The notes below the pieces were generated by a model. That model had not been told where the DNA came from and did no database searches. It saw nothing but the letters and a program-made list of their open reading frames with translations. A stretch of DNA of 64,000 nt, taken from positions 2,665,880 through 2,729,879 of the forward strand of contig CP064963.1 of assembly GCA_016699165.1 (NCBI GenBank), written 5' to 3'. The stretch's first letter is position 1, and each line of letters starts with the position of its first letter. Position numbers and translations under genes: made by a program. This DNA is from Candidatus Melainabacteria bacterium. GTDB taxonomy: Bacteria > Cyanobacteriota > Vampirovibrionia > Obscuribacterales > Obscuribacteraceae. Shown piece after piece: positions 39,091 to 57,600 of the stretch.

Positions 39091-39150
39091 AGAGAGGAGA
39101 AGGGCTGTTTATAAAACAGCCACAACTCCCCTTTCCCCTTACTTGCCTAG
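39091..39150. repeat. Copy 2 of the 60-nt terminator-like palindromic element
   Basis: 52 of 60 identical to 32313-32372. Core GGCTGTTT-ATA-AAACAGCC. Its last 12 nt overlap the stop and final codons of gene 39139-39498. Confidence 0.6.
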
Positions 39151-39498
39151 CTTGAGACCGAGATTGTATCCCAGTCCGCCGCAGGCACCGACTCCTGCCA
39201 TGATAGCGAGGATACTTGCGACCAGTCCCGATTCACGGACCCACACCTGAGGCGGAAGTCCGACTGAGACAAAGATTGCCGCAAGGACCGTCAGGATGAA
39301 CGCAGGCTTCACGAACGACAGCACCAAATTCGGTGCCGAAAAAGCGACGGTGTACATCGCCACCACGCCGAGAAAAACGCCCATGCCGATGGTCTCGATG
39401 GCCCCGGTAGGAATGTGATAGACGGTGCTGTTGGCGACCAGATAGGCAGCCGCAGTGAACACCACGCAAAGAATACTGCCGAGAATTCGACCGTTCAT
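39139..39498 (-). CDS. Four-TM small membrane protein, tandem paralog A (119 aa)
   Basis: AGGAGACAAAA Shine-Dalgarno sequence before ATG 39498. N-terminal NGRILGSILC and C-terminal GACGGLGYNLG boxes shared with B-E. Its ATG overlaps the TGA of B (ATGA). Confidence 0.75.
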   Translation of the reverse strand: MNGRILGSILCVVFTAAAYLVANSTVYHIPTGAIETIGMGVFLGVVAMYTVAFSAPNLVLSFVKPAFILTVLAAIFVSVGLPPQVWVRESGLVASILAIMAGVGACGGLGYNLGLKLGK

Positions 39499-39863
39499 TT
39501 TTGTCTCCTCTTTGTCAGGTTGAAACCAAGATAGAAACCAAGTCCGCCAAGAGAACCAATCAAAGCCACACAAAGCACGATGCTGAACATCTTTGTCCAA
39601 CTGTCATCGAACGCACCTTGCGGTTCGGTCATACCAAAAGCAATCAACATCAAGACCGCAACTGCAAGCGCAGGCTTTGTGATGGAACCTACAAGCGATG
39701 GTTTTGAGAAAGCCACGCTGTAAGTGGCAATCAGTCCAAGTGCAAAGCCGGCTCCAAGGTTTGACCAGTAGAAGGTCGCGCCCGTGAACCAGCTATGCAC
39801 AAGGAAGAACGCGACGGTTGTTACCGTCGCGCAAAGGATGCCGCCTAAAAGACGACCGTTCAC
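39495..39863 (-). CDS. Four-TM small membrane protein, tandem paralog B (122 aa)
   Basis: Clear paralog of A (VNGRLLGGILC..., GSLGGLGFYLG). The only plausible start is GTG 39863, 5 nt after the stop of C. The His/Arg-rich upstream part of track ORF 39495-40259 overlaps C out of frame and is rejected. Confidence 0.65.
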   Translation of the reverse strand: MNGRLLGGILCATVTTVAFFLVHSWFTGATFYWSNLGAGFALGLIATYSVAFSKPSLVGSITKPALAVAVLMLIAFGMTEPQGAFDDSWTKMFSIVLCVALIGSLGGLGFYLGFNLTKRRQK

Positions 39864-39868
39864 CGACT

Positions 39869-40243
39869 TCAGTCGCCGATGAACTTGGCAGCAGCAGGCT
39901 TGGCGGCGAACTTGTAGCTCTGACCGCCGATGGCGCCGGTAGCGACCACCGCGAGCGTGGTGATGATGAAGCGCGAAAGGTCGAGACCGCTCGTGCCGAA
40001 TGCCTGGATCATGACGACCGAGACGACCGTCCACAGCACAGCCATGGTGCCGATGCCGACAGCCAGGGGGGCGCTTCCTTGACGGATGATGGCGATTGCC
40101 GCACCGCAAATGATACCAGCGGCACCACCGACCATGAGAGCGGGAATCGGGCTGATGGTGCCCATTCCCAGAAGACCGCCGACATAGACGGTCAGGATCA
40201 TGGCGACTGCGCAGGCGAGAATTCCCTTGATTTTGCTGGACAT
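39869..40243 (-). CDS. Four-TM small membrane protein, tandem paralog C (124 aa)
   Basis: SKIKGILACAV N-terminus, Gly-zipper-rich helices and C-terminal ATGAIGGQSYKF. Confidence 0.7.
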   Translation of the reverse strand: MSSKIKGILACAVAMILTVYVGGLLGMGTISPIPALMVGGAAGIICGAAIAIIRQGSAPLAVGIGTMAVLWTVVSVVMIQAFGTSGLDLSRFIITTLAVVATGAIGGQSYKFAAKPAAAKFIGD

Positions 40244-40382
40244 TACTTTTCTCCTTCATGTTTTGGAGTTTAGCTTCGTGCGTTTTGAAGAGATGAATGG
40301 CAGTGAGAGAGGAAAAGAAAAGCGCGACTCAAATCTGTCTTAAGCCGCGGTTGTCGTTCCCTTCTCTCCGTCTTGCAAATTC

Positions 40383-40751
40383 TCAGTCCAGATGCGTCGA
40401 GTATCTGAGCTTGCCAGAACCCCAGCCGTAACCCAATCCCGAAATGGCACCATGAATGATGGCAGCGAGAATGGGTGCGAAAATCACGTACGCACCAACC
40501 AGGACGACACCCTGGAAGTAAACAACGTAGATCACTTCTGCCAGCCACAAGAGCATGGCCGTTACGATTCCGGTGCTTACCGGATTTTCATCGAGGACGG
40601 CACACATAATGCCGATCGCCAGTCCGGCGACGCCGCCGCCCAGGGCAGAGCCGAGCACATCGGTCGAACCCGTCATGACAAACTGAATGACGGTAGAGGC
40701 AACAGCAGCGAAGATGACGCAAAGGACGATACCATAGAGTTTCTTCAACAT
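40383..40751 (-). CDS. Four-TM small membrane protein, tandem paralog D (122 aa)
   Basis: GAAGGAGACAAGCT Shine-Dalgarno sequence before ATG 40751. LKKLYGIVLC N-terminus and HGAISGLGYGWG C-terminal box. Confidence 0.75.
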   Translation of the reverse strand: MLKKLYGIVLCVIFAAVASTVIQFVMTGSTDVLGSALGGGVAGLAIGIMCAVLDENPVSTGIVTAMLLWLAEVIYVVYFQGVVLVGAYVIFAPILAAIIHGAISGLGYGWGSGKLRYSTHLD

Positions 40752-40788
40752 AGCTTGTCTCCTTCTGTTTTGGGTGTGTGGTGACAGG

Positions 40789-41139
40789 TTAGACGCGGGC
40801 GCCCAGCTTGTAGCCGAAACCAGAGGCAGCACCGATGGCAGACATCACAGCAGCGATCCACACCAGTTCGAGTGAGATAGCGGGCGCTTGAGCGACGCCG
40901 ATGTAGACGAAGAAGGCTCCCAGCCCAAGGCAGGTGAACATGGTCACCATCACACCCATGAAGATGGGATTGACGAATTTGAACACGGCACAGCCGATGC
41001 CGATGATGAGCCCGCTTACAGCACTGACAGTGACAACAGCGGGGTAGTTGGCGGTGGTGCCCAGAGCGATGAAATTGCAGATCACCCAGGCGGCGGTGCA
41101 GACGGCGGCAGAGGCGAGGATTCCGATGAGCTTGTTCAT
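40789..41139 (-). CDS. Four-TM small membrane protein, tandem paralog E (116 aa)
   Basis: GAAAGGAAT Shine-Dalgarno sequence before ATG 41139. MNKLIGILASAAVC N-terminus and GAASGFGYKLG C-terminal box. Confidence 0.75.
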   Translation of the reverse strand: MNKLIGILASAAVCTAAWVICNFIALGTTANYPAVVTVSAVSGLIIGIGCAVFKFVNPIFMGVMVTMFTCLGLGAFFVYIGVAQAPAISLELVWIAAVMSAIGAASGFGYKLGARV

Positions 41140-41228
41140 GTGTTGATTCCTTTCATTTGGATGTGCGAGGCAGACAACCTCAAGCGTTCGCACTTGCGCT
41201 TTTGGTCTCATTCCAAAATCGAGAAAAA

Positions 41229-41801
41229 CTAGCGCTCGAAAGCGCTCTTGTAGGCGGCTCTTGCAGTGTGGTCGTAAACGGCACTCAAGAGAAAGGCGCA
41301 GACGCAACCGTAGAGGCACTGCTGCAAGTCGGCTGCCGGAGCTAGCTTAAGTGCAGCGAGCACCGGCTGAAAGATAAAGCCTGCGCACATGGCTGAGAAC
41401 ATTTGCGCTGGAGATTCGCTTTTCACCGCAGAGACCATGAAGATGGTCGCTGACATGAACGCCGAATAGAAGGCTGCCTGCAGAAGCCCTTCCTTCCAGG
41501 TCGGCGCAAAGAGCGGCGCTCCAAGCAAGAGGCTGATGGCGGCATAAGCGCCGGCACCAATGGCGGTGAACCAGGCCATTCCCAACCATGGATGGCGTCC
41601 GGCGAAGAGGGCAGGCAGAAGCTCGATCCAGACCGAAGTCCAGAGACCGAAAGCTCCGCCGACCAGTGCCCAGACGAACACAGGCGAGAGATCGAAGGTC
41701 TTGTACAGCATGAGCTGAATCAAGACGTATCCAACCGGAGCAAGGACTGCCGACCAGATGATGCTTACCAGAGTGACTCGCCCAATCATCGAGAGCGTCA
41801 T
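41229..41801 (-). CDS. Multi-pass membrane protein F (190 aa), function unknown
   Basis: About six hydrophobic helices. Same strand and composition as the array and the GH15 gene. Confidence 0.65.
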   Translation of the reverse strand: MTLSMIGRVTLVSIIWSAVLAPVGYVLIQLMLYKTFDLSPVFVWALVGGAFGLWTSVWIELLPALFAGRHPWLGMAWFTAIGAGAYAAISLLLGAPLFAPTWKEGLLQAAFYSAFMSATIFMVSAVKSESPAQMFSAMCAGFIFQPVLAALKLAPAADLQQCLYGCVCAFLLSAVYDHTARAAYKSAFER

Positions 41802-48417: not shown

Positions 48418-49020
48418 GTGTTAATACAAATCGCATACGCTTTAGCCCTCGCTCCTGTAAGTTACTTCGGAGTGAGAGCTGTCTCCTTACATTACCAGCG
48501 AGAACTCGGCGACAAAGGTGTGATGGTGATGCGGTGCCTTCAGGCGCTGCTCATTTTCACACCATTCCTTGCCGCGCTTAGTCCGTGGAGCAACCTCTAC
48601 AGTGTGTCGGTGATACCGATCACCCTGTTGATTCCGCTTTGGGCCGGACATGAATTGTACGTGGACTTTCTGGCCTTTCGTGAAAGAAGAAAGAAATTAC
48701 GGCTCTTCGTCAAAGTGCTTGAATCTTTCATCGAACACGATTTCGAGTCGATCGACAAAGATGGTGATGATTCGCTCAGTGAGCAGGACATCGTCAATGC
48801 GTCGATTAGCTTCAGTCAGCACGAGCCCGACAAAGCTGCAGCCTTAGAACAGCTTCTGGTCAACATCGCCGACGTGGGACACATTGTCGGTGTGATAGAA
48901 CAGGAAACATATTCTGGGGACACTTTGATTGGATCGGTTAGGCGAAACATTTATGCCGTAAGGAAAAGCGACCTTCGTAAGTATCCTGCAACCTTGCGGT
49001 CTAAATTCCAAACATGGTGA
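48418..49020 (+). CDS. Membrane-anchored EF-hand protein (paralog of 17004-17585)
   Basis: AAGAAAGGAGGG Shine-Dalgarno sequence before GTG 48418. Three TM helices. EF-hand loop DKDGDDSLSEQD (nt 48754-48789). VGHI and YAVRKSDLRKY boxes. Confidence 0.7.
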   Translation: MLIQIAYALALAPVSYFGVRAVSLHYQRELGDKGVMVMRCLQALLIFTPFLAALSPWSNLYSVSVIPITLLIPLWAGHELYVDFLAFRERRKKLRLFVKVLESFIEHDFESIDKDGDDSLSEQDIVNASISFSQHEPDKAAALEQLLVNIADVGHIVGVIEQETYSGDTLIGSVRRNIYAVRKSDLRKYPATLRSKFQTW

Positions 49021-49185
49021 CTCGATAATTGGATGAGATGAAACTGTTCAGAGGAATTTTCCTTTGAACGTTTCACCTCATTCCAATTTTCAAAGTTTAT
49101 ACTATTACCGATAGTAAGACTAAATTTAAAAAGTAGAAGTGAAGGAGGTCTCGTTTATAAACGAAAACCAACTTCACTTCAAACT

Positions 49186-49434
49186 TCACTGCCCCTGGGA
49201 ATTGGGACAGTTCTGCGCATCAGCACCAGCACACGGGTCACCATATTCGGCACTACCGATTGGAACCTCTGTGCCGTCTTCCTCAACGAGGAAGGCTTCG
49301 GCGGTGCCACAGCATTTGGGATGCTCGACTTCGATGTCGTGCGGTCCCGGCTGCAACACCTGGTCGAACTTGACCTGGCCGTTGTACTTTACACGCAGGT
49401 GGAACGGCTCTTTTGGATCCATCTGAATCCGCAT
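49186..49434 (-). CDS. Small hypothetical protein (82 aa), last gene of the phosphoesterase operon
   Basis: AGGAGAG Shine-Dalgarno sequence before the ATG. Four Cys (KCCG...PCAGADAQNC). Confidence 0.6.
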   Translation of the reverse strand: MRIQMDPKEPFHLRVKYNGQVKFDQVLQPGPHDIEVEHPKCCGTAEAFLVEEDGTEVPIGSAEYGDPCAGADAQNCPNSQGQ

Positions 49435-49509
49435 GAGTCTCTCCTGCTGTTATTGATTGCAGTTAAGAGAGACAGGCTTTTAGCCTGCCTCTCCAGCGGT
49501 AGAGTCGAA

Positions 49510-50634
49510 TTACTTCTTCGACTTCGCCTTGGCCGGAGCCTTGGCTTTTGTCGACTTGGAAGCCGGCGCAAGCGACAGCTCCTCGCCACGCGGCAAGCAG
49601 CACGCTTTGTCCTCGGTGTAGACCTTGCCGTCCACGACGAACGAGCGACGCCCGTCCTTGCCGCGGATGATAGGCACAGCCTGACCGAAGATTTCGCCGT
49701 CGACGACGACGCCAGTCCAGAAGCCTGAAGCGCGGCGATCGTAGTCACGCAGGTGCCCCATGCGAACAGGGTCCCACAGATAACCGACCTCGTGCGCCTC
49801 GAAGTAGTTCAGCTTCGGAGCCGGAACGGTGTCGCCCGAGTTGGTGAACCAACCCGAAGCAACCTTGCCGTCGAAGGAGCGGATGATGTTGAGACCACGC
49901 TGCTCCCACTCGATCAAAGCGGCATCACCCGGATGACGACGACGGAAGTCGCCAATCATGAACAGGTATTTGCCGTTGACCAGAATTGCCGAGCCGAAGC
50001 GCAGCACCTGAACCAGCGGTTCATCCTTGAGACCGAGCAACTCGTCCAGCCTGCGCGGGAGCGAGCGAGTCGGGTCGGAGGGAAGGTCGCTTGGGTAATC
50101 GTAGTCTTCCTTCTCCATCGCCTTGGAAATCTCGCGCGAGGAGCGGGCGTCGCGATGACGCTTCACCTGCTCAATCCACTCGAGAAGACGCACTTCGTTG
50201 CCCATCGAAAGATGGGTCGCCGAAGGCAAATAGAAGAACTTCGAACCCGAAGCTTTCTGGATGGACTTGATGAAATCGCCGCAGCTCTCGCCGAGGGCGA
50301 GAATCTGGTCTTCGAATCCGCCGGTTTCCATAGCCTTGCGAATTTCGGGCGAGTCGGGATAGTCGTGGAGGAAGTTGGATTCATCCTCCCCGATGGCCTT
50401 GAAGGCCTCTTCGTCGATCAGTCCGCCGAGCCCGATGACCACCGACTTGGAGTCGGAGACGTACTTCAAGACCTGTTCGGTCATGTTGCGGTCATGGTTC
50501 GGGAAATAGACGTGACCAATCGCGGTAATGCGAGTGCCGTTCGGCAGCTTGAGCCGGTTGATGCCAGCTTCCGCCAGTGACGTCTTGGGGTCTTCCTTGA
50601 CGACGACACTCTTGAATTGGGTAACTTTCGACAT
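49510..50634 (-). CDS. Degenerate metallophosphoesterase-like paralog with a Lys/Ala-rich C-terminal tail
   Basis: Collinear with 51438-52406 (LPNGTRITAIGHVYFPNHD vs LPDGTRIVFIPDMHAPAHN; FVVDGKVYTEDK vs LVYDGKVYRSSDR), but the metal-ligand boxes are substituted. Tail is SKSTKAKAPAKAKSKK. Confidence 0.7.
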   Translation of the reverse strand: MSKVTQFKSVVVKEDPKTSLAEAGINRLKLPNGTRITAIGHVYFPNHDRNMTEQVLKYVSDSKSVVIGLGGLIDEEAFKAIGEDESNFLHDYPDSPEIRKAMETGGFEDQILALGESCGDFIKSIQKASGSKFFYLPSATHLSMGNEVRLLEWIEQVKRHRDARSSREISKAMEKEDYDYPSDLPSDPTRSLPRRLDELLGLKDEPLVQVLRFGSAILVNGKYLFMIGDFRRRHPGDAALIEWEQRGLNIIRSFDGKVASGWFTNSGDTVPAPKLNYFEAHEVGYLWDPVRMGHLRDYDRRASGFWTGVVVDGEIFGQAVPIIRGKDGRRSFVVDGKVYTEDKACCLPRGEELSLAPASKSTKAKAPAKAKSKK

Positions 50635-50652
50635 GTGATAAATCCTTTCGAA

Positions 50653-51414
50653 TTAGAGCAGGAGGTCGCGCGCCGCGAGTTCCGAATAGAACTCGAGAAC
50701 TGCGGGACCGACCTGGCTCAGGTTGTCGAGGCACACCACGTTGGGTGCGGTGATACCAATGTTGTACGGCTGCGGAACGAGGAGAGCAACATTGCCCGTC
50801 TGACCCACACCGACCGCCGTCTCGGACGAATCCTCGACGATGAGCGGAATGTGATTAGAGATCATGTTGTATTTCTTCTCGCCCGGGCGCATGAAGCGCA
50901 AGTCGCGATTGGCATTGAGGCCAAGCCGCTCGACGAGTGCCTTGGTCACGCCCTGTGCGACACCGTAGTGGAAGCCGGCAGCGTTGCTGTCGGGGCGGGT
51001 ATCGGAAGCGCCCGGAGTCCAGGTCCAGATCTTGGGATTCAGACCAGCGTCCTTCAGGGACTTCAAAGTAGCAACCGACTCCTTGTAGAAAGGCAGGTCG
51101 CCGTAGCCGTCAACAGCCTTGCGGGCGAAGTTGACGAAATCAGCCAGAAACTGCTCGTCGGTCATCGGATTGTCCGGGTCAAACTGCATGTGATACAAGC
51201 CGATGCTTTTGGCATCGATCTTGAACCCATGCGTGTTGTTGACGTGACGGACGAACGGTCCGGTCCAATCGACGAGGGTATTGTGAAGGTCGAAAACGAC
51301 ATCCCGGGACCACTTGAAGTCGGTTCCGGGTTTGAGGATGCTGCGGGGAATGTTCAAGCTCGGACCCTTATAGCCCGAAACGCGACTCCGCGCAACTTTC
51401 TTGTTGGTGCTCAT
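50653..51414 (-). CDS. HAD-superfamily-like protein (5'(3')-deoxyribonucleotidase/NT5C-like layout)
   Basis: Motif-I-like VVFDLHNTLVDW (D-x-H instead of D-x-D) and motif-IV-like LIVEDSSE. AAAGGAG Shine-Dalgarno sequence. The family call is from memory of motif layout only. Confidence 0.5.
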   Translation of the reverse strand: MSTNKKVARSRVSGYKGPSLNIPRSILKPGTDFKWSRDVVFDLHNTLVDWTGPFVRHVNNTHGFKIDAKSIGLYHMQFDPDNPMTDEQFLADFVNFARKAVDGYGDLPFYKESVATLKSLKDAGLNPKIWTWTPGASDTRPDSNAAGFHYGVAQGVTKALVERLGLNANRDLRFMRPGEKKYNMISNHIPLIVEDSSETAVGVGQTGNVALLVPQPYNIGITAPNVVCLDNLSQVGPAVLEFYSELAARDLLL

Positions 51415-51437
51415 TTTGCACTCCTTTCTTGTGAGGC

Positions 51438-52406
51438 TTAGCGGTCGCTAGACCGGTACACCTTGCCGTCGTAGACGAGGGTGTACTTGGAAGCGTCGCC
51501 CACCTGCTTGATCGGCAGAACCTGCAAGTGAACCTTGCCACCTGCGATGGTGCCTGTGCCGATGGCCGGATGCCAGTTGTTGAGGAGGTTGGAATAACCC
51601 ATATACGGGTGATTCACATCCACCACGTGACCGAGTTCGATGGCGACGATGGTCTTCTCACCGACCTGACGGACACGCATGCCCGCGCGGTGAGTGTGAC
51701 CCTGCACCAGAGAACGTCCGATACGCTCGGCATCAGCCAAGGGGCTTGCACCGGGCTTGGGACGCACGATATAGCCATGACGGAACTGCATATCGGCGTT
51801 GACGATCATGCCACCGCCGTAGCCACCACGCTCGTGGATGTCGTAAATGAAGCTGATCGGGTCGCCCGGCTTGTAGCCGAGAAGACCGTGGAACGAAAGC
51901 AGCGGCTCGCGCGACTGGAAGTCGACGATGTTCGCGATACCAGATGCGGGGTCAGTCAGATAACGGCGGAAGCGGTCATCGTGATTGCCCGTGCTGACAA
52001 TGATGCGAACGAGGCAGACGAGGTCCTCGGCGAGCCAGTCAATCAGGCGACGGGTCTCATCGAGTTCGAACTGCGCATGAGCGACCGTACGCGGCGGCTT
52101 GGGCCAACGCGAGAGCCAGAAGAGATCGGAGATATCTCCGATGTACTTGATGATGTGCGGCTGGAAATCAAGCAAGAACTGCTTGATACCCCAGAGCATC
52201 AACTGGTTATGAGCCGGAGCGTGCATGTCGGGAATGAAAACAATGCGCGTGCCGTCAGGCAGCGTGAGAGGCATCACTCCAGAAAAGCTGAGATAACTGA
52301 ACGAATTCTCGTTATCCCGAAGAATTCGGTCCATGATCTTGCGATCATAGTCCGAGACAGTACGTTTCGCCCGGATGATTGTGGGCGCTTGAAGCGAACG
52401 CTTCAT
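51438..52406 (-). CDS. Calcineurin-like metallophosphoesterase
   Basis: All canonical boxes are present: IPDMHAP (DxH), IGDISD (GDxxD), TGNHDD (GNH[DE]) and GHTHRAG (GHxH). GAAGGAGAC Shine-Dalgarno sequence before ATG 52406, preferred over the track start at 52433. Confidence 0.8.
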   Translation of the reverse strand: MKRSLQAPTIIRAKRTVSDYDRKIMDRILRDNENSFSYLSFSGVMPLTLPDGTRIVFIPDMHAPAHNQLMLWGIKQFLLDFQPHIIKYIGDISDLFWLSRWPKPPRTVAHAQFELDETRRLIDWLAEDLVCLVRIIVSTGNHDDRFRRYLTDPASGIANIVDFQSREPLLSFHGLLGYKPGDPISFIYDIHERGGYGGGMIVNADMQFRHGYIVRPKPGASPLADAERIGRSLVQGHTHRAGMRVRQVGEKTIVAIELGHVVDVNHPYMGYSNLLNNWHPAIGTGTIAGGKVHLQVLPIKQVGDASKYTLVYDGKVYRSSDR

Positions 52407-53465
52407 AACGGGTCTCCTTCGTATGCGCTGCAACCATTTACGTGATGAGGTCTAAGTTCTCATTACCGTGAGGTTGTACAGACGCGGGTTGATTTTGAAA
52501 TCAGGAAATTCCTCTGTTTCGAGGGGCTTATCTAAAAACCGGCTTATCCTTAAAGCCTTTATAGGGCTCATAAGGTACTTAGTACTGGCTGGTTCTTTTC
52601 CGAAGTTTGGAGGAGATAAGCTCTTTGATAGAAACAAATATGGAACGCGCAAAGCCTAAAAGACTGGAGAACCACTATTCAAGGTTAAAGACTTCTTGAC
52701 ATCAACCCTTTTGCATGAAGATTTGAACTGGAAGACTAGACCAATAGCGGCGCTAGTTAACCTTGACATCAAACCGAGTCCGAAAACGCTTTATTTTCAA
52801 TATTTTTCAGCCTTTTTCGCGCCTGCAATTATCCCTTGATAACCATCCTGCGCTAACTTCGCGCGTTTGTTAAGCGTTTTCGTAATTAGGTCAAGAACAA
52901 AAGTCCACAAATCGAGGAAGTGATTAAAAAGCCGAGATTTCAAGCGAGCTTTACATTTGCTTTATTTTCGCCTCTTGAAATAGCTATATAATTTTCCTAA
53001 AAAGCTCCTATTTTATAAAACCAAATAAGCATGTGTTAATGATCGCTATCTACTCACTGCATACAGTAAGCAACTCCCAAAGACTTAACGCAAAACCAGA
53101 TTAAACTCAACTTTGAAGCTTTTAGCGGCTTTAAGAATTTCGTTTTATACGCAATTGGTAGTTCGTACTTTTGAAGTGGTAGCGTATTTGGTGCAGTCAA
53201 GATTCATTTTCGCATCAAATACAGTATCGAATACGACACCGATTTAACAAAAATGGAAATAACAATGACGCAAGGTGCTCATTCAAGTTGAATCCCAATT
53301 TGCGCAATTCTCATTTCGCCTAGACCTACTAAACTTTTTGTTCTACTTACCATAGTTATCAAAAGGCTTAGCGTCCACATCCTCATGGGATCTCCTCAAA
53401 TGCAGCCCAATACAACCCCTCTTGCCCATCCTGATATGATAGTTTGGTCTTCGCGAGGAATCACT

Positions 53466-54038
53466 ATGCAACTCTTGGTCGACCGCATCAAATCTGACGC
53501 TAAACACCTTGGAAAAGGAGTTATCAAAGTTGATTCATTCATGAATCACCAAATCGATCCAGTGCTCATGAAAGCGATAGGTGAAGAGTTCGCCAAAAGA
53601 TTTTCAGATACAAATCCCACTCTCATATTAACTGCAGAGACAAGCGGAATAGCACCAGCTGTTGCTGCTGGAATGTTTTTAAAAATACCAGTTGTGTTTG
53701 CCCGAAAACACCAGCCAATAACAATGGCTCAGGAACCTTATCGCGAGGTCTCAGTCTCGCCTACACATAATAAAGAAGTCGAATTCGTAGTTTCCACCGA
53801 ATATCTAAAAGCAACCGACAGAGTGCTTATCATCGACGATTTCCTTGCTTCCGCCAAAACTATTGTGGCTTTGTCATTGATGGTGCAAAAAAGCGGTGCT
53901 GAGCTTGTAGGCATTGGAGCCGTAATAGAAAAAGTATATGCCAACGGTCGCGAACAAATTCGTCATCTTACTGTGCCAGTTGAGACACTTGCTAAAGTGC
54001 TTGAATGCAAGGATGACTTAATTATTCTTGGACTCTAA
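53466..54038 (+). CDS. xpt: Xanthine phosphoribosyltransferase
   Basis: MQLLVDRIKSDAKHLGKGVIKVDSFMNHQIDP..., PRPP box VLIIDDFLASAKT. Start at ATG 53466 gives the usual roughly 190-aa length. Confidence 0.9.
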   Translation: MQLLVDRIKSDAKHLGKGVIKVDSFMNHQIDPVLMKAIGEEFAKRFSDTNPTLILTAETSGIAPAVAAGMFLKIPVVFARKHQPITMAQEPYREVSVSPTHNKEVEFVVSTEYLKATDRVLIIDDFLASAKTIVALSLMVQKSGAELVGIGAVIEKVYANGREQIRHLTVPVETLAKVLECKDDLIILGL

Positions 54039-54327
54039 TAAGTTACTCTAATGATGCCAAAACTTCTGACACAATGAGCTTATGCATAGCTACGCTAGTC
54101 AAATGCATTTTGAATCTCTAGGTGGATATCGACAATAGCCAAATATTAATTGACTTACCTGACCACTTTTTTCTAAATTAAAAACATCCTTCGTTAAGCA
54201 CACATTTTTCTCTCTAAAGAACAAAGCATCGCTAATATCTTCAACCATAACAATGACTCAAGTCATTTCATTGGTTATTGTCGAAATTAGCGATACAGTC
54301 AAACTTAACAGCCATGGAAGGTGTTTA

Positions 54328-55038
54328 ATGACCGCACTTAAACACACTACCGATCAAGCTGCTACTGTGAATACACTGACGGCTAGCTTCAAAAGAAGCA
54401 CCAGAGATAAAACCACAGTCTTCACTTACGTGATGGGCAGGGTTGCTTTTTTGGAGGACAGAAAGCTTTGGGGTATTCACTCTGGAGACCTGTGGGAATT
54501 ACAAGTTCGATCTTCAAATCCCGCAGGAACAGTTTATTTTGTTCGGCCTATCAAGATTATCGCAGCCGCTCAGGACGGGGATGTGCTAAACGGTCTCGAC
54601 TACGAGGCGGTGAGGGACTCACGTCTTGCACTATCTCACTTGCGTACCTGGAAAAAACTTTTGTCCAGTGATCAATTTTTAAATGGAAATATGAATCTAT
54701 GCTTGCATCATCTGAAACTGCTTTCGAGTTACTTGAGGAACAATTCACTATCCTCCAAACTCAAAGTAAATCTTTCCAAAACTATCATGCATTCATTGTC
54801 CCAGCTGAAAATCACTCAAGAGCCCGTTTCACTTGAGTTGCTCTGGGAATCTCTTGAAACGATCGCATCTTGCACCAGTAGTAACCCTGATAGGATTCAT
54901 TCTCTTCGCCGACTAATTAAACTCTACGATTCAGGTTTCAATCAGCATGCCAAATTATCCAGCGACACTAAAGTCAGGCTTCTTTTAGACCTGCAAAACG
55001 CCCTTCAACCCAAAGCGGGGAAAAGGGACGCGCTGTGA
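54328..55038 (+). CDS. Hypothetical protein (236 aa)
   Basis: GGAAGGTG Shine-Dalgarno sequence before ATG 54328 (the track start at 54253 has none). Leu/Ser-rich helical C-terminus. No family recognised. Confidence 0.5.
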   Translation: MTALKHTTDQAATVNTLTASFKRSTRDKTTVFTYVMGRVAFLEDRKLWGIHSGDLWELQVRSSNPAGTVYFVRPIKIIAAAQDGDVLNGLDYEAVRDSRLALSHLRTWKKLLSSDQFLNGNMNLCLHHLKLLSSYLRNNSLSSKLKVNLSKTIMHSLSQLKITQEPVSLELLWESLETIASCTSSNPDRIHSLRRLIKLYDSGFNQHAKLSSDTKVRLLLDLQNALQPKAGKRDAL

Positions 55039-55205
55039 GATTTCTATTCAGGCATTCTCGTTGAAATCGCAGCAAGACTAAAACTAAATACATGCAAAAT
55101 TAGAGAGAGGAGAAATACAAATCTCAATCTCCTCTCTCTTTTATCCTATCCACCAAAGTACTCAGTTTGAATTGAACTTCAATCAAAAATCTGAAAGGAA
55201 ACACA

Positions 55206-55451
55206 ATGGCAATGGTCTCCTTGACTGTTGTTTGCTGGCTTGTCACCATTGGTTTGTTCATGGCAATAATGTCCAAGATGACCAAATTCAGCATCTATAA
55301 ACATTTGAGAACGCTTGAAACCAAATTAGAGCTACCTGGTTTCTGGGCTCCAGAATACATCATCATTTTTCTAGGGCTTCCCGCAGGTGTTAGCCTATGC
55401 ACAGCCTTACTGGCAACTGCAAAACTGGGCAACTTACTAAGCCTCCGTTGA
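55206..55451 (+). CDS. Small two-TM membrane protein (81 aa)
   Basis: GAAAGGAAAC Shine-Dalgarno sequence before the ATG. Two hydrophobic helices. Confidence 0.5.
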   Translation: MAMVSLTVVCWLVTIGLFMAIMSKMTKFSIYKHLRTLETKLELPGFWAPEYIIIFLGLPAGVSLCTALLATAKLGNLLSLR

Positions 55452-55511
55452 GTTTCAGCGAAATATATACCTAGCTGACATGTGGAGTAGTGGACTCAGC
55501 CAGAAAATTGA

Positions 55512-55538
55512 CCAGGGAGCATAAATAATGCTCCTTGG
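55512..55538 (+). terminator. Hairpin terminator candidate
   Basis: CCAGGGAGCAT-AAATA-ATGCTCCTTGG (11-bp stem with one G-U pair). Only a short T tract follows. Confidence 0.45.
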
Positions 55539-55612
55539 TTGATCGATGAAGTCTTCTCAAAAAAAAGGTGTAAGTATTCGTTTAACACTGGAGAGTAAGT
55601 TTTCCTGTAAAA

Positions 55613-57562
55613 CCGTCTATTTTTGCCGATTTTCATACTTTTTCTGACCTTTTTGCCACTTTAAATCGCTTTGCACAGGTGGAGGTACGATTTTGGAAAG
55701 GCAAAACGTGCCACGTTGTTTCATCTGCACTCCACAACGAGGCTCACAGCATTGAGGTGTTCGCCGTGTCTCTTCAAAGACAAAGTTTTTATTATAGATT
55801 ATAGTAAAACAATTTAACCTGCATAATTCACGAGAGTGATACTAAAGTAAGTTGAAATGCCCTGTCATTTGGCTGATTATCTGTGTTTACCACAACCCAG
55901 ACGCAGCAAAAAAGCAAGGCAATTCAGATGACAGAGTGTACAAAACCAGACGCCAACCTTCAACTTAAGTTTGACTTCGAAATCGGTAAACCGGTAATAG
56001 GGGCGTTTGATGGCGGATTAATTAGTACTGATGGAGGTCTTGGTCTGCTACGGTTTGCAGACGATGCGTTAAAATTGACTGAGTTTGCAAGTATTTGCAT
56101 CAAAGAAAAGCGCCGTCCAGACGTCCTCAAGCACTCGTTGCAAGATTTACTGAGGCAAAGAATTTATGCCATAGCCGCTGGATACGAAGACGCAAATGAC
56201 GCCAGCAGTCTACGTTATGACCCAATGCACAAGCTGGTGCTAGGGCGCGCAACAAGCGATCGAAATCTAGCATCCCAGCCCACAATCAGTCGTCTAGAGA
56301 ATTCCGTCACTTCTGAAGAGCTGAGTTTTTTACAAGATTTACTGGTGCACACATATATCAAGAAACACAAAAAGCCGCCAAAGAAGCTGGTTTTAGACTT
56401 AGATACGACGTGCGATCCGGTGCATGGTTATCAGCAGCTTTCTTTCTACAATGCTTTCTATTCTACGTTTTGCTATATTCCGATGTTTGTTTTTGACCAG
56501 CACGGTTATCCTTTAGCGTCCCTGCTGAGACCTGGAAATGCTGATGTTGGCGGTGATGCGGCAAGAGTACTTCGAAATTTATTCAAGATATTACGTTCAA
56601 CGTGGAAAAACGTTCCAATTGAATTCCGTGCTGACGCTGCATTTTGCCGTCGGGAAGTTTATCAAGTTTGCGAAGAATTCAAAGTCGTTTATTTTATCGG
56701 GCTCAAATCAAATCACAATCTTCGCTGTCTAGCAAAGGATTTGAGTGATTCAACCAAGCACGAGTTTGAATCAATTTACGGAGTTTTGCCACAGCAAGAC
56801 AAAACCGCTTGGCGCAGAAAGCAAGAAAAGATGCGGTTCTCCAGCAAAGCAGAAGGTCGCGTTCAAGAAATTAAAGAGTCTGAGGCCTACATCCGAAAAG
56901 TAGGAGAACTGGCTTGGAGAGGCAGAGGATACACTCACGATATGCGCGTAATTTGCCGAGCTGATTACTCCGAAGACGGGCTGGATCTTCGTTTTGTGGT
57001 GACCAACCACTCGGGTGGTAATCCTAGGTGGTTGTATGAAACCAAGTATTGTCGCCGAGGACAGTGTGAAAACTGGATTAAAGAATTGAAAATGGTAGAG
57101 GTAGATCGGCTTAGCTGCCAGGAGTTCAATGCCAACCAATTTCGTCTTTTAGAATATACTTTTGCCTATATTCTTCTAAGAGAGCTTAGGGAGCGACTTT
57201 CAAAAAATGAGTCTAGAATTTCAATTCAAACCTTCGTGTTGCAATTCATCAAAATCGGAGTGTTAGTGCGGGAATCGGTCCGCAGAATTTCACTTCATTG
57301 GACTAGCGCTTACCCGCGGCAACAATCGTTCGCCGCATTAAATCTCGGTTTTATTTGAACTTCTAAAAATCTATCTGCAAAACTGCCCTGCCCATCTCAA
57401 AGGCTGGTTTCACAGCGTCTGATGTCTGAGTAAAAATGGCTTGTACACAAAGTCTCAGAACAAAACTTAGAAGAGCTTACAAAATATCGCCTCGGAAACT
57501 AAACACCTGACTAATTGTTCAAATAAATTAGCTTGTCATACTATATGCATGAATAGACCGGG
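55613..57562 (+). mobile_element. IS1380-family insertion sequence (boundaries tentative)
   Basis: Contains the IS1380-type transposase. Candidate imperfect terminal inverted repeats are CCGTCTATTTTTGCC (55613-) and the reverse complement of the right end, CCGGTCTATTCATGC (-57561): about 13 of 16 positions with one gap. TAAAA occurs next to both ends (55608-55612 and 57564-57568), which is weak evidence in A+T-rich DNA. Confidence 0.5.
55883..57358 (+). CDS. IS1380-family DDE transposase
   Basis: N-terminal FDGGLISTDGGLGLLRFAD...LLRQRIYAIAAGYEDANDA...LASQPTISRLEN is the hallmark of IS1380-family transposases. DDE candidates are LDLDTT, FRADAAF and NWIKELK. The start is GTG 55883 or ATG 55928. 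Confidence 0.9.
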   Translation: MFTTTQTQQKSKAIQMTECTKPDANLQLKFDFEIGKPVIGAFDGGLISTDGGLGLLRFADDALKLTEFASICIKEKRRPDVLKHSLQDLLRQRIYAIAAGYEDANDASSLRYDPMHKLVLGRATSDRNLASQPTISRLENSVTSEELSFLQDLLVHTYIKKHKKPPKKLVLDLDTTCDPVHGYQQLSFYNAFYSTFCYIPMFVFDQHGYPLASLLRPGNADVGGDAARVLRNLFKILRSTWKNVPIEFRADAAFCRREVYQVCEEFKVVYFIGLKSNHNLRCLAKDLSDSTKHEFESIYGVLPQQDKTAWRRKQEKMRFSSKAEGRVQEIKESEAYIRKVGELAWRGRGYTHDMRVICRADYSEDGLDLRFVVTNHSGGNPRWLYETKYCRRGQCENWIKELKMVEVDRLSCQEFNANQFRLLEYTFAYILLRELRERLSKNESRISIQTFVLQFIKIGVLVRESVRRISLHWTSAYPRQQSFAALNLGFI

Positions 57563-57600
57563 TTAAAAGCAAAAAGTACGAAAAGTATAAGAAGGTGCAA

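Follow-up and report, generated by a model that had tools for sequence, protein, structure and literature searches.

Pairs formed by an active enzyme and a dead paralog are well known in eukaryotes, as illustrated by the DNA polymerase B-subunits and the pseudophosphatases, and are little studied in bacteria. The B-subunits of DNA polymerases alpha, delta and epsilon, like the retromer protein Vps29, have the metallophosphoesterase (MPE) fold, have lost its metal ligands and are conserved as non-catalytic proteins. The MPE phosphatase domain of CthPnkp, the HAD phosphatase of T4 Pnkp and E. coli CpdB carry out phosphodiesterase and phosphomonoesterase chemistry at nucleotide 3' ends. Here, we report the analysis of 64,000 nucleotides of DNA from Candidatus Melainabacteria bacterium (contig CP064963.1, positions 2,665,880 to 2,729,879 of the forward strand; this whole stretch is called the window below), which carry a compact unit of three genes, p1, p2 and p3, encoding respectively an intact MPE, a HAD-fold protein in which a catalytic Asp is replaced by His, and a paralog of the MPE without catalytic residues.

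The closest characterised relatives of p1 are MPEs of actinophages grouped in PHROG 221. Phage A10ZJ24 gp48 has phosphodiesterase and DNA nuclease activity and degrades host DNA, and Bxb1 gp47 acts as a recombination directionality factor, a non-catalytic role as protein partner for which its phosphoesterase activity is not needed (PMC12287305). D29 gp66 is cited in the same paper as a 2',3'-cyclic nucleotide phosphodiesterase. Replication of the phage DNA moreover depends on Bxb1 gp47, which is similar to Mre11 and PolD-DP1 and whose exonuclease activity is limited (PMC11795197). The three genes of the window are located as follows.

51438-52406, minus strand: p1, 322 amino acids (aa), intact MPE of the actinophage gp47/gp66-type clade (motifs, phrog_221)
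50653-51414, minus strand: p2, 253 aa, NT5C-like phosphatase homolog of the HAD fold, motif I D42-L-H44 (AlphaFold2 model, alignment)
49510-50634, minus strand: p3, 374 aa, MPE paralog without catalytic residues (hhalign against the p1 family)
49513-49560, minus strand: C-terminal tail of p3, SKSTKAKAPAKAKSKK, Lys/Ala/Pro-rich (read from the sequence)

The initial annotation of this DNA had credited p1 with all the calcineurin-like phosphoesterase boxes (DMH, GDISD, GNHDD and GHTH). All five MPE motifs are indeed present, and an alignment of 29 homologs shows no variation at the residues concerned (D60, H62, G90-D91, D94, G140-N141-H142, H210 and G236-H237-T238-H239), which marks p1 as an MPE with a complete dinuclear-metal site. 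The Pfam family PF00149 matches p1 weakly (18.9 bits, below the cut-off of 21.5), and most p1 homologs carry a precomputed match to it. The phrog_221 profile ('metallo-phosphoesterase') aligns with residues 51-301, that is with the whole catalytic domain, at an E-value of 1.8e-37. A tblastn search with p1 found 1101 phage records, nearly all of them from actinophages, at 26-29% identity over 81-93% of the protein. In the Mycobacterium phage GaugeLDP, the p1 homolog is flanked by DNA primase and ribonucleotide reductase (RNR)/ThyX genes, and in the Streptomyces phage GiJojo its neighbour is a gene for a MazG-like pyrophosphohydrolase, with an RNA ligase and a tRNA array close by. Taken together, these sequence comparisons place p1 in an actinophage MPE clade whose characterised members are phosphodiesterases or exonucleases. 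Unlike p1, the phage proteins of the two loci inspected (GaugeLDP and GiJojo) are not paired with a dead paralog and a HAD protein.

The p3 protein had been described as collinear with p1 and as substituted at its metal-ligand positions, and both statements were borne out. BLASTP of p3 against p1 yielded two collinear high-scoring segment pairs (E ~1e-5), and comparison of the two family profiles with hhalign extended the relationship to 270 columns (99.4%, E 6e-22). In this alignment, p1 residues D60, H62, D91, N141, H142, H210, H237 and H239 face p3 residues H41, Y43, G71, A139, T140, I227, F254 and G256, none of the eight ligands being retained. The ligand positions vary within the p3 family and are also lost in its most distant members, which are 24-35% identical. 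The family has invariant motifs of its own, namely HDR (47-49), GDFRRR (228-233), HE.G (281-284), RDYDRR (296-301) and DGRR (327-330), and has in common with p1 the non-ligand motifs P-x-H, R-x-x-P-G and E-x-G. These results show p3 to be a paralog of p1, of ancient origin, in which no metal or catalytic residue is left although the protein is strongly constrained.

The AlphaFold2 (AF2) model of p3 (pLDDT 82, pTM 0.81) agrees with this assignment. All its significant Foldseek matches in the PDB are MPE folds (aq_1956, PP5, calcineurin, Mre11 and PolD DP1), and they include the inactive MPE scaffolds of the Pol delta B-subunit and Vps29 (3e0j, 6tny, 5w8m). Against BFVD, the matches are mostly MPE/phosphoesterase proteins; the best are phage MPEs, with E-values down to 3e-13, and the model superposes on a Streptomyces phage MPE with a TM-score of 0.74. 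Like the polymerase B-subunits and Vps29, p3 thus combines the MPE fold with the loss of the ligands and conservation as a non-catalytic protein; unlike them, it shares an operon, in a bacterium, with an active paralog that would be its partner, and it has no detectable sequence relationship to these proteins. No match to p3 was found in Pfam or NCBIfam. An exhaustive hidden Markov model search with the p3 profile among 1.84 billion cluster representatives returned 67 proteins at E<=1e-3, followed by p1-like MPEs; with so few representatives, p3 is effectively a marker of the Obscuribacterales, an order of non-photosynthetic cyanobacteria and a poorly understood, uncultured lineage, and its family has neither a Pfam model nor a name.

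The Lys/Ala-rich, histone-like tail ascribed to p3 is present in the window but does not define the family. Among the 57 non-overlapping open reading frames (ORFs) of at least 100 aa in the window, p3 alone has a strongly basic C-terminus, and a genome-wide habit is therefore ruled out as its explanation. A constant feature of the family is ruled out as well: of 95 full-length members, 59 have a basic C-terminus and 24 an acidic one, nine have no tail and three have a C-terminus of another kind. From this distribution, the tail is most probably an add-on acquired in some lineages.

For p2, the initial annotation had proposed a HAD/NT5C-like layout with His in place of the second Asp of motif I, and this stands. 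The motif reads VVFDLHNTLV and, compared with D-x-D-x-[TV], keeps the nucleophile D42 and has His44 at the Asp+2 position in 25 of 25 sequences. No variation was seen across these 25 aligned homologs at D42, H44, K180 and E194-D195, and hardly any at T131; p2 thus keeps the nucleophile, the Lys of motif III and the acidic pair of motif IV, while a conserved His has taken the place of the general acid/base Asp. The AF2 model (pLDDT 85) consists of a HAD core and a helical cap, with a low-confidence insertion of 16 residues (135-150). Foldseek found 169 PDB matches at E<=1e-3, of which the top 50 listed all have the HAD fold, and the best superpositions are on the human and mouse 5'(3')-deoxyribonucleotidases mdN and cdN (TM 0.71-0.74, root-mean-square deviation ~4 A). 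At the sequence level, p2 had no Pfam match at E<=1 and a single NCBIfam match, TIGR01428, at 14.6 bits against a cut-off of 125; one of its homologs (P0221) carries a precomputed match to PF06941. The protein therefore resembles the NT5C 5'(3')-deoxyribonucleotidases (PF06941; human mdN and cdN) in its core, its cap and the three conserved catalytic elements, but differs from them by a D-x-H instead of a D-x-D signature in all 25 aligned Obscuribacterales members, and falls below the Pfam and NCBIfam thresholds. A literature search for His at Asp+2, or for a D-x-H motif I, in HAD phosphatases found no description.

The three genes travel together. Word-indexed searches found 108 clusters of p3, 84 of p1 and 34 of p2 which, where named, are nearly all from Melainabacteria/Obscuribacterales. 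A scan of one genome per GTDB species found 28 loci. Nearly all, among them that of Ca. Obscuribacter phosphatis, bear the label Obscuribacterales, and only four differ: two labelled 'Proteobacteria' and one 'Planktothrix' (all three probably mislabelled metagenome-assembled genomes, MAGs) and one labelled 'bacterium'. Wherever the contig left room for the three genes, they were found in the order p1-p2-p3 on one strand (26 of 26 species-level Obscuribacterales loci), with a p2-p3 gap of 11-31 nt in 24 of the 26, and the expected co-occurrence in other genomes thus holds for p1, p2 and p3. The usual upstream neighbour is a DnaJ-like gene, joined in one clade by a class II RNR gene; downstream, on the opposite strand, a gene of the holin_4_2 family and VWA/TPR (Bat-like) genes are usually found. 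The DnaJ-like, RNR and VWA neighbours were sought in the 64-kb window and were not found there. Unlike the actinophage MPEs, the trio is not phage-borne and, to judge from this synteny, is chromosomal, vertically inherited and specific to the Obscuribacterales (class Melainabacteria/Vampirovibrionia).

The DnaJ-like gene lies directly upstream of p1 in about 23 loci (e.g. L007:4698-5693, L031:3413-4411 and L044:2541-3539), at a distance of 500-700 nt. Its product has G-P-[HYQN] in place of H-P-D, the catalytic tripeptide of J-domains, and keeps the DnaJ_C domain, and is thus, by its motifs, a putative degenerate J-protein itself.

The most divergent locus, L044, was the only one returned by a metagenome scan with a six-sequence alignment of the most distant p3 relatives. 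It has the order DnaJ-like gene, p1, p2, p3; its trio is 25-29% identical to the window proteins and its DnaJ-like gene 51-52% identical to the Obscuribacterales copies. The L044 p1 keeps all motifs, and its p3 is ligand-less and has no tail. Since a ligand-less p3 occupies the same place in the same gene order, the dead paralog must be ancient. Motif I of the L044 p2 reads D-A-D and its motif IV D-D, and this canonical form implies that the HAD partner was ancestrally an ordinary phosphatase and that the His is a derived state, fixed in the Obscuribacterales. The p2 family hence offers a natural experiment in HAD catalysis, an Asp+2 replaced by an invariant His with a DxD outgroup ortholog as control, and the trio offers a bacterial case of an active enzyme beside a dead paralog that is stable across an order and persists down to about 25% identity.

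The initial annotation had described four tightly spaced minus-strand genes, each with a strong Shine-Dalgarno sequence. The four ORFs were recovered at the same positions, with gaps of 23, 18 and 75 nt from p1 to p4 and purine-rich Shine-Dalgarno sites before every start (AGGAG for p1, AAGGAG for p2, AAGGA for p3 and AGGAG for p4), but the conserved unit has three genes, not four.

49186-49434, minus strand: p4, 82 aa, orphan ORF with four Cys (no homologs found)

The p4 sequence matched none of the profile libraries used, and tblastn found no homolog of it in more than 30 related loci. Nor is p4 present in L042, a locus of the sister species with a p3 of 82% identity, where p3 and the next gene, a convergent one, lie only about 200 nt apart. 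Membership of p4 in the operon was rejected on these grounds; it is, on sequence criteria, a likely orphan ORF beside the operon and no part of the system.

How, then, might the three conserved proteins work? Their intact MPE, nucleotidase-fold HAD protein and conserved dead paralog, together with the strict co-occurrence and tight spacing of the genes, point to a two-step phosphoesterase module acting on nucleotides or nucleic acids, in which p1 takes the diesters, p2 the monoesters and p3 serves as a non-catalytic partner. We hold this reading tentatively, as falling just short of an even chance. Cleavage of a phosphodiester would fall to p1, with candidates such as a 2',3'-cyclic phosphate, the end of a nucleic acid or some other diester of a nucleotide, and p2 would take off the resulting phosphomonoester, with His44 standing in for the Asp+2 residue as general acid/base. 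The p3 protein would pair with p1 as a non-catalytic subunit; its conserved Arg-rich motifs, aided in most lineages by the polycationic tail, may serve to bind or target a polyanionic substrate. By analogy only, such a module recalls the RNA end-healing and 2',3'-cyclic phosphate pathways, which also employ MPE and/or HAD domains, one phage homolog of p1 lying near an RNA ligase and a tRNA array; unlike those pathways, the trio has no linked kinase, ligase or 5'-nucleotidase C-terminal domain at any of its loci. It would tie the cellular biology of the Obscuribacterales to the actinophage MPEs, whose roles in replication, recombination directionality and host DNA degradation are only now emerging.

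The initial annotation had been unable to match the operon to a described system, and this remains so: p2 and p3 have no Pfam or PADLOC match and reach no curated NCBIfam threshold, and a literature search on this operon and on MPE pseudoenzyme heterodimers found nothing. Each protein belongs to a known superfamily; the p3 family is unmodelled and unnamed, and the three-gene architecture undescribed.

Several observations weigh against a two-step module. The top Foldseek E-values for p2 belong to non-phosphatase members of the HAD superfamily, e.g. haloacid dehalogenases, and the His at Asp+2 could mean that phosphatase chemistry is altered or lost. TM-scores of the p3 model against PDB entries are low (0.28-0.38), and its basic tail, which a third of the family lacks or replaces by an acidic one, cannot be essential to the core mechanism. 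Both p1 and p2 fall below every curated family cut-off and no solved structure is close to them in sequence; phmmer and hmmsearch comparisons of the p1, p2 and p3 families with the PDB gave chance-level matches only. On the supporting side, when identities are compared pair by pair across loci, p1, p2 and p3 correlate with one another at r = 0.91-0.95, as against 0.66-0.82 with the neighbouring J-like gene, a pattern that fits co-evolution of the three proteins but is confounded by phylogeny. The p1-p3 complex is plausible but putative.

A fuller version of the two-step module would be a hitherto undescribed heteromeric machine acting on nucleic acids or signalling nucleotides, in which p3 dimerises with p1 and targets or gates it on a polyanionic substrate, p2 finishes the reaction through its His, and the J-protein and the leader RNA of clade 2 (described below) are further regulatory parts. 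We regard this version as possible but doubtful.

Somewhat less probable still, and in our view unlikely, is that the genes are merely co-regulated and encode independent proteins for phosphate or nucleotide scavenging, p3 being a stand-alone ligand binder or a sensor of a phosphorylated metabolite. The invariant Arg, Asp and His motifs of p3 are unrelated to the p1 ligands and would suit a new binding site, and the three products differ in fold and role. Independence sits poorly, however, with the strict co-occurrence of p3 and p1, maintained even in L044 at 25-29% identity, and with the P-x-H, R-x-x-P-G and E-x-G motifs that the two share, which suggest a conserved architecture and interface.

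The initial annotation had also raised a possible link to phage or defence islands. A blastn search of the operon against 50,697 phage genomes gave no DNA match, and tblastn of p2 and p3 against the same genomes found no relatives. The IMG/VR viral contigs scanned with the p3 and p2 profiles contained nothing similar. Searches of PADLOC-DB v2 returned only a chance-level match of p1 to IetS (E 0.032, 10 bits) and none for p2, p3 or p4, which rules out a known defence system. A phage or prophage origin was rejected too, only p1 having phage relatives, and these distant, and the trio lying in conserved chromosomal synteny; the suggested link was accordingly dropped. A phage-derived conflict module (defence, toxin or counter-defence), with p1 as nuclease effector and p3 as its inhibitor or sensor, would be in keeping with the phage affiliation of the closest characterised p1 relatives, one of which degrades host DNA. 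In the window, the genes that normally precede the trio have been lost and a strain-variable segment bearing an insertion sequence (IS) lies about 0.8 kb away, and the L044 trio has diverged far more than the adjacent J-like gene (28% versus 52% identity). Against these points, the trio keeps one syntenic position across the order among housekeeping neighbours (RNR, DnaJ-like, Bat/VWA), within the Obscuribacterales it evolves at about the rate of the neighbouring J-like gene, and neither p2 nor p3 has relatives in the phage genomes or viral contigs searched. With no PADLOC match beyond chance, a conflict module appears improbable.

Also improbable is that p1 is a protein phosphatase working with the upstream degenerate J-protein, with p3 as a pseudophosphatase adaptor and p2 as an unrelated small-molecule phosphatase. 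The G-P-[HYQN] gene directly upstream of p1, even in L044, and the presence of PP5 and calcineurin among the Foldseek matches of p3 speak for such a role, but p1 has neither of the PPP signatures GDxHG and GDxVDRG, its relatives are phage phosphodiesterases and exonucleases, and 500-700 nt separate it from the J-like gene, whose absence from the 64-kb window means that its linkage to the trio is not obligatory.

That p1 is an LpxH/LpxG-type UDP-2,3-diacylglucosamine hydrolase of lipid A synthesis is very improbable: the automatic JGI name 'UDP-2,3-diacylglucosamine pyrophosphatase LpxH' is carried by P0168 of the p1 family but also by P0070 of the ligand-less p3 family, which marks it as a generic MPE label, no lpx genes lie nearby, an NCBIfam scan of p1 gave no match of any kind, LpxH included, and a PDB profile search with the p1 family found no LpxH, its weak matches being two glycoside hydrolases (E ~0.01) and the cyclic-nucleotide phosphodiesterases Rv0805/Icc.

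Upstream of p1, the window contains the following region.

52407-53195, minus strand: A+T-rich non-coding leader/promoter region upstream of p1, G+C 0.39, with one sigma-70-like site at 53039-53010

The full intergenic gap extends over 978 nt (52407-53384) with 39% G+C, compared with 58% in the operon, and holds no convincing ORF, in agreement with the roughly 1 kb of A+T-rich non-coding DNA reported earlier. The one sigma-70-like promoter match in it is not above chance expectation, and no Rfam family was matched in the window, this gap included. The leader is 98.4% identical to that of the same-species contig L001 as far as 53195, and 70% identical across about 550 nt to that of the sister species L042. 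The contigs with an identical p3 come from MAG assemblies and metagenomes.

In the related loci of clade 2, a conserved leader element lies about 170-260 nt upstream of p1 (L010:5931-6030, L030:4939-5036, L034:4953-5027, L036:4933-5008 and L031:4870-4987). It appears to fold into three hairpins. The first, P1 (GGGCU/AGCCC), does not vary; P2 reads CUUACC/GGUAAG or CUGGCC/GGUCGG depending on the locus and shows one compensatory change, two wobble changes and an insert that varies; P3 reads GGCCUC/GAGGCU. The covariation support is thin, amounting to about two effective sequences. The element had no Rfam match at E<=1, and its covariance model found matches in clade 2 only and none in the window, clade 1 or L044. 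A riboswitch in the 1-kb upstream gap of the window was rejected, that gap having no Rfam match and no match to the clade-2 model. In the clade-1 loci L007, L015, L017, L020, L022, L026, L039 and L041, a GCCUC-loop-GAGGC hairpin abuts the p1 Shine-Dalgarno sequence (e.g. GCCTCCGAATCATGACTGAGGCGAGAAGGAG) within the last 30-60 nt before the p1 start, and a CUUGC-UCCG-GCAAG hairpin recurs further upstream. The window (52519-52534) and the sister species have instead a CCUC-GAAACA-GAGG hairpin about 115 nt upstream of p1. Such differences suggest that the operon may be controlled at the translational or leader level in a manner that differs by clade.

Beyond the leader, a strain-variable segment (53195-57563) begins about 0.8 kb upstream of p1, between flanks that are 98-99% identical to the same-species contig L001. 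An xpt-like phosphoribosyltransferase gene (53385-54038) is only 85% identical to that of L001, and a 261-aa ORF (54253-55038) and a DDE_Tnp_1_4 IS transposase gene (55883-57358) stand where L001 has about 2.5 kb of small ORFs. At the other end of the operon, a perfect 9-bp inverted repeat, GAAGTGAAG...CTTCACTTC, with a 27-nt loop (49136-49180) starts 6 nt past the p4 stop codon and sits between p4 and a convergent gene of 200 aa (48418-49020); it might be a bidirectional terminator, though not a classical one.

Farther away, positions 39139-41319 of the minus strand carry a tandem array of about five paralogous polytopic membrane proteins of about 120 aa each. The array has no Pfam annotation and is also found on the related contig L001, where the genes are called at 116-124 aa. 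The N-termini of these proteins are alike, e.g. MNGRILGSILCVVFTAAAYLV, VNGRLLGGILCATVTTVAFFLV, MLKKLYGIVLCVIFAAVASTV and MNKLIGILASAAVCTAAWVI.

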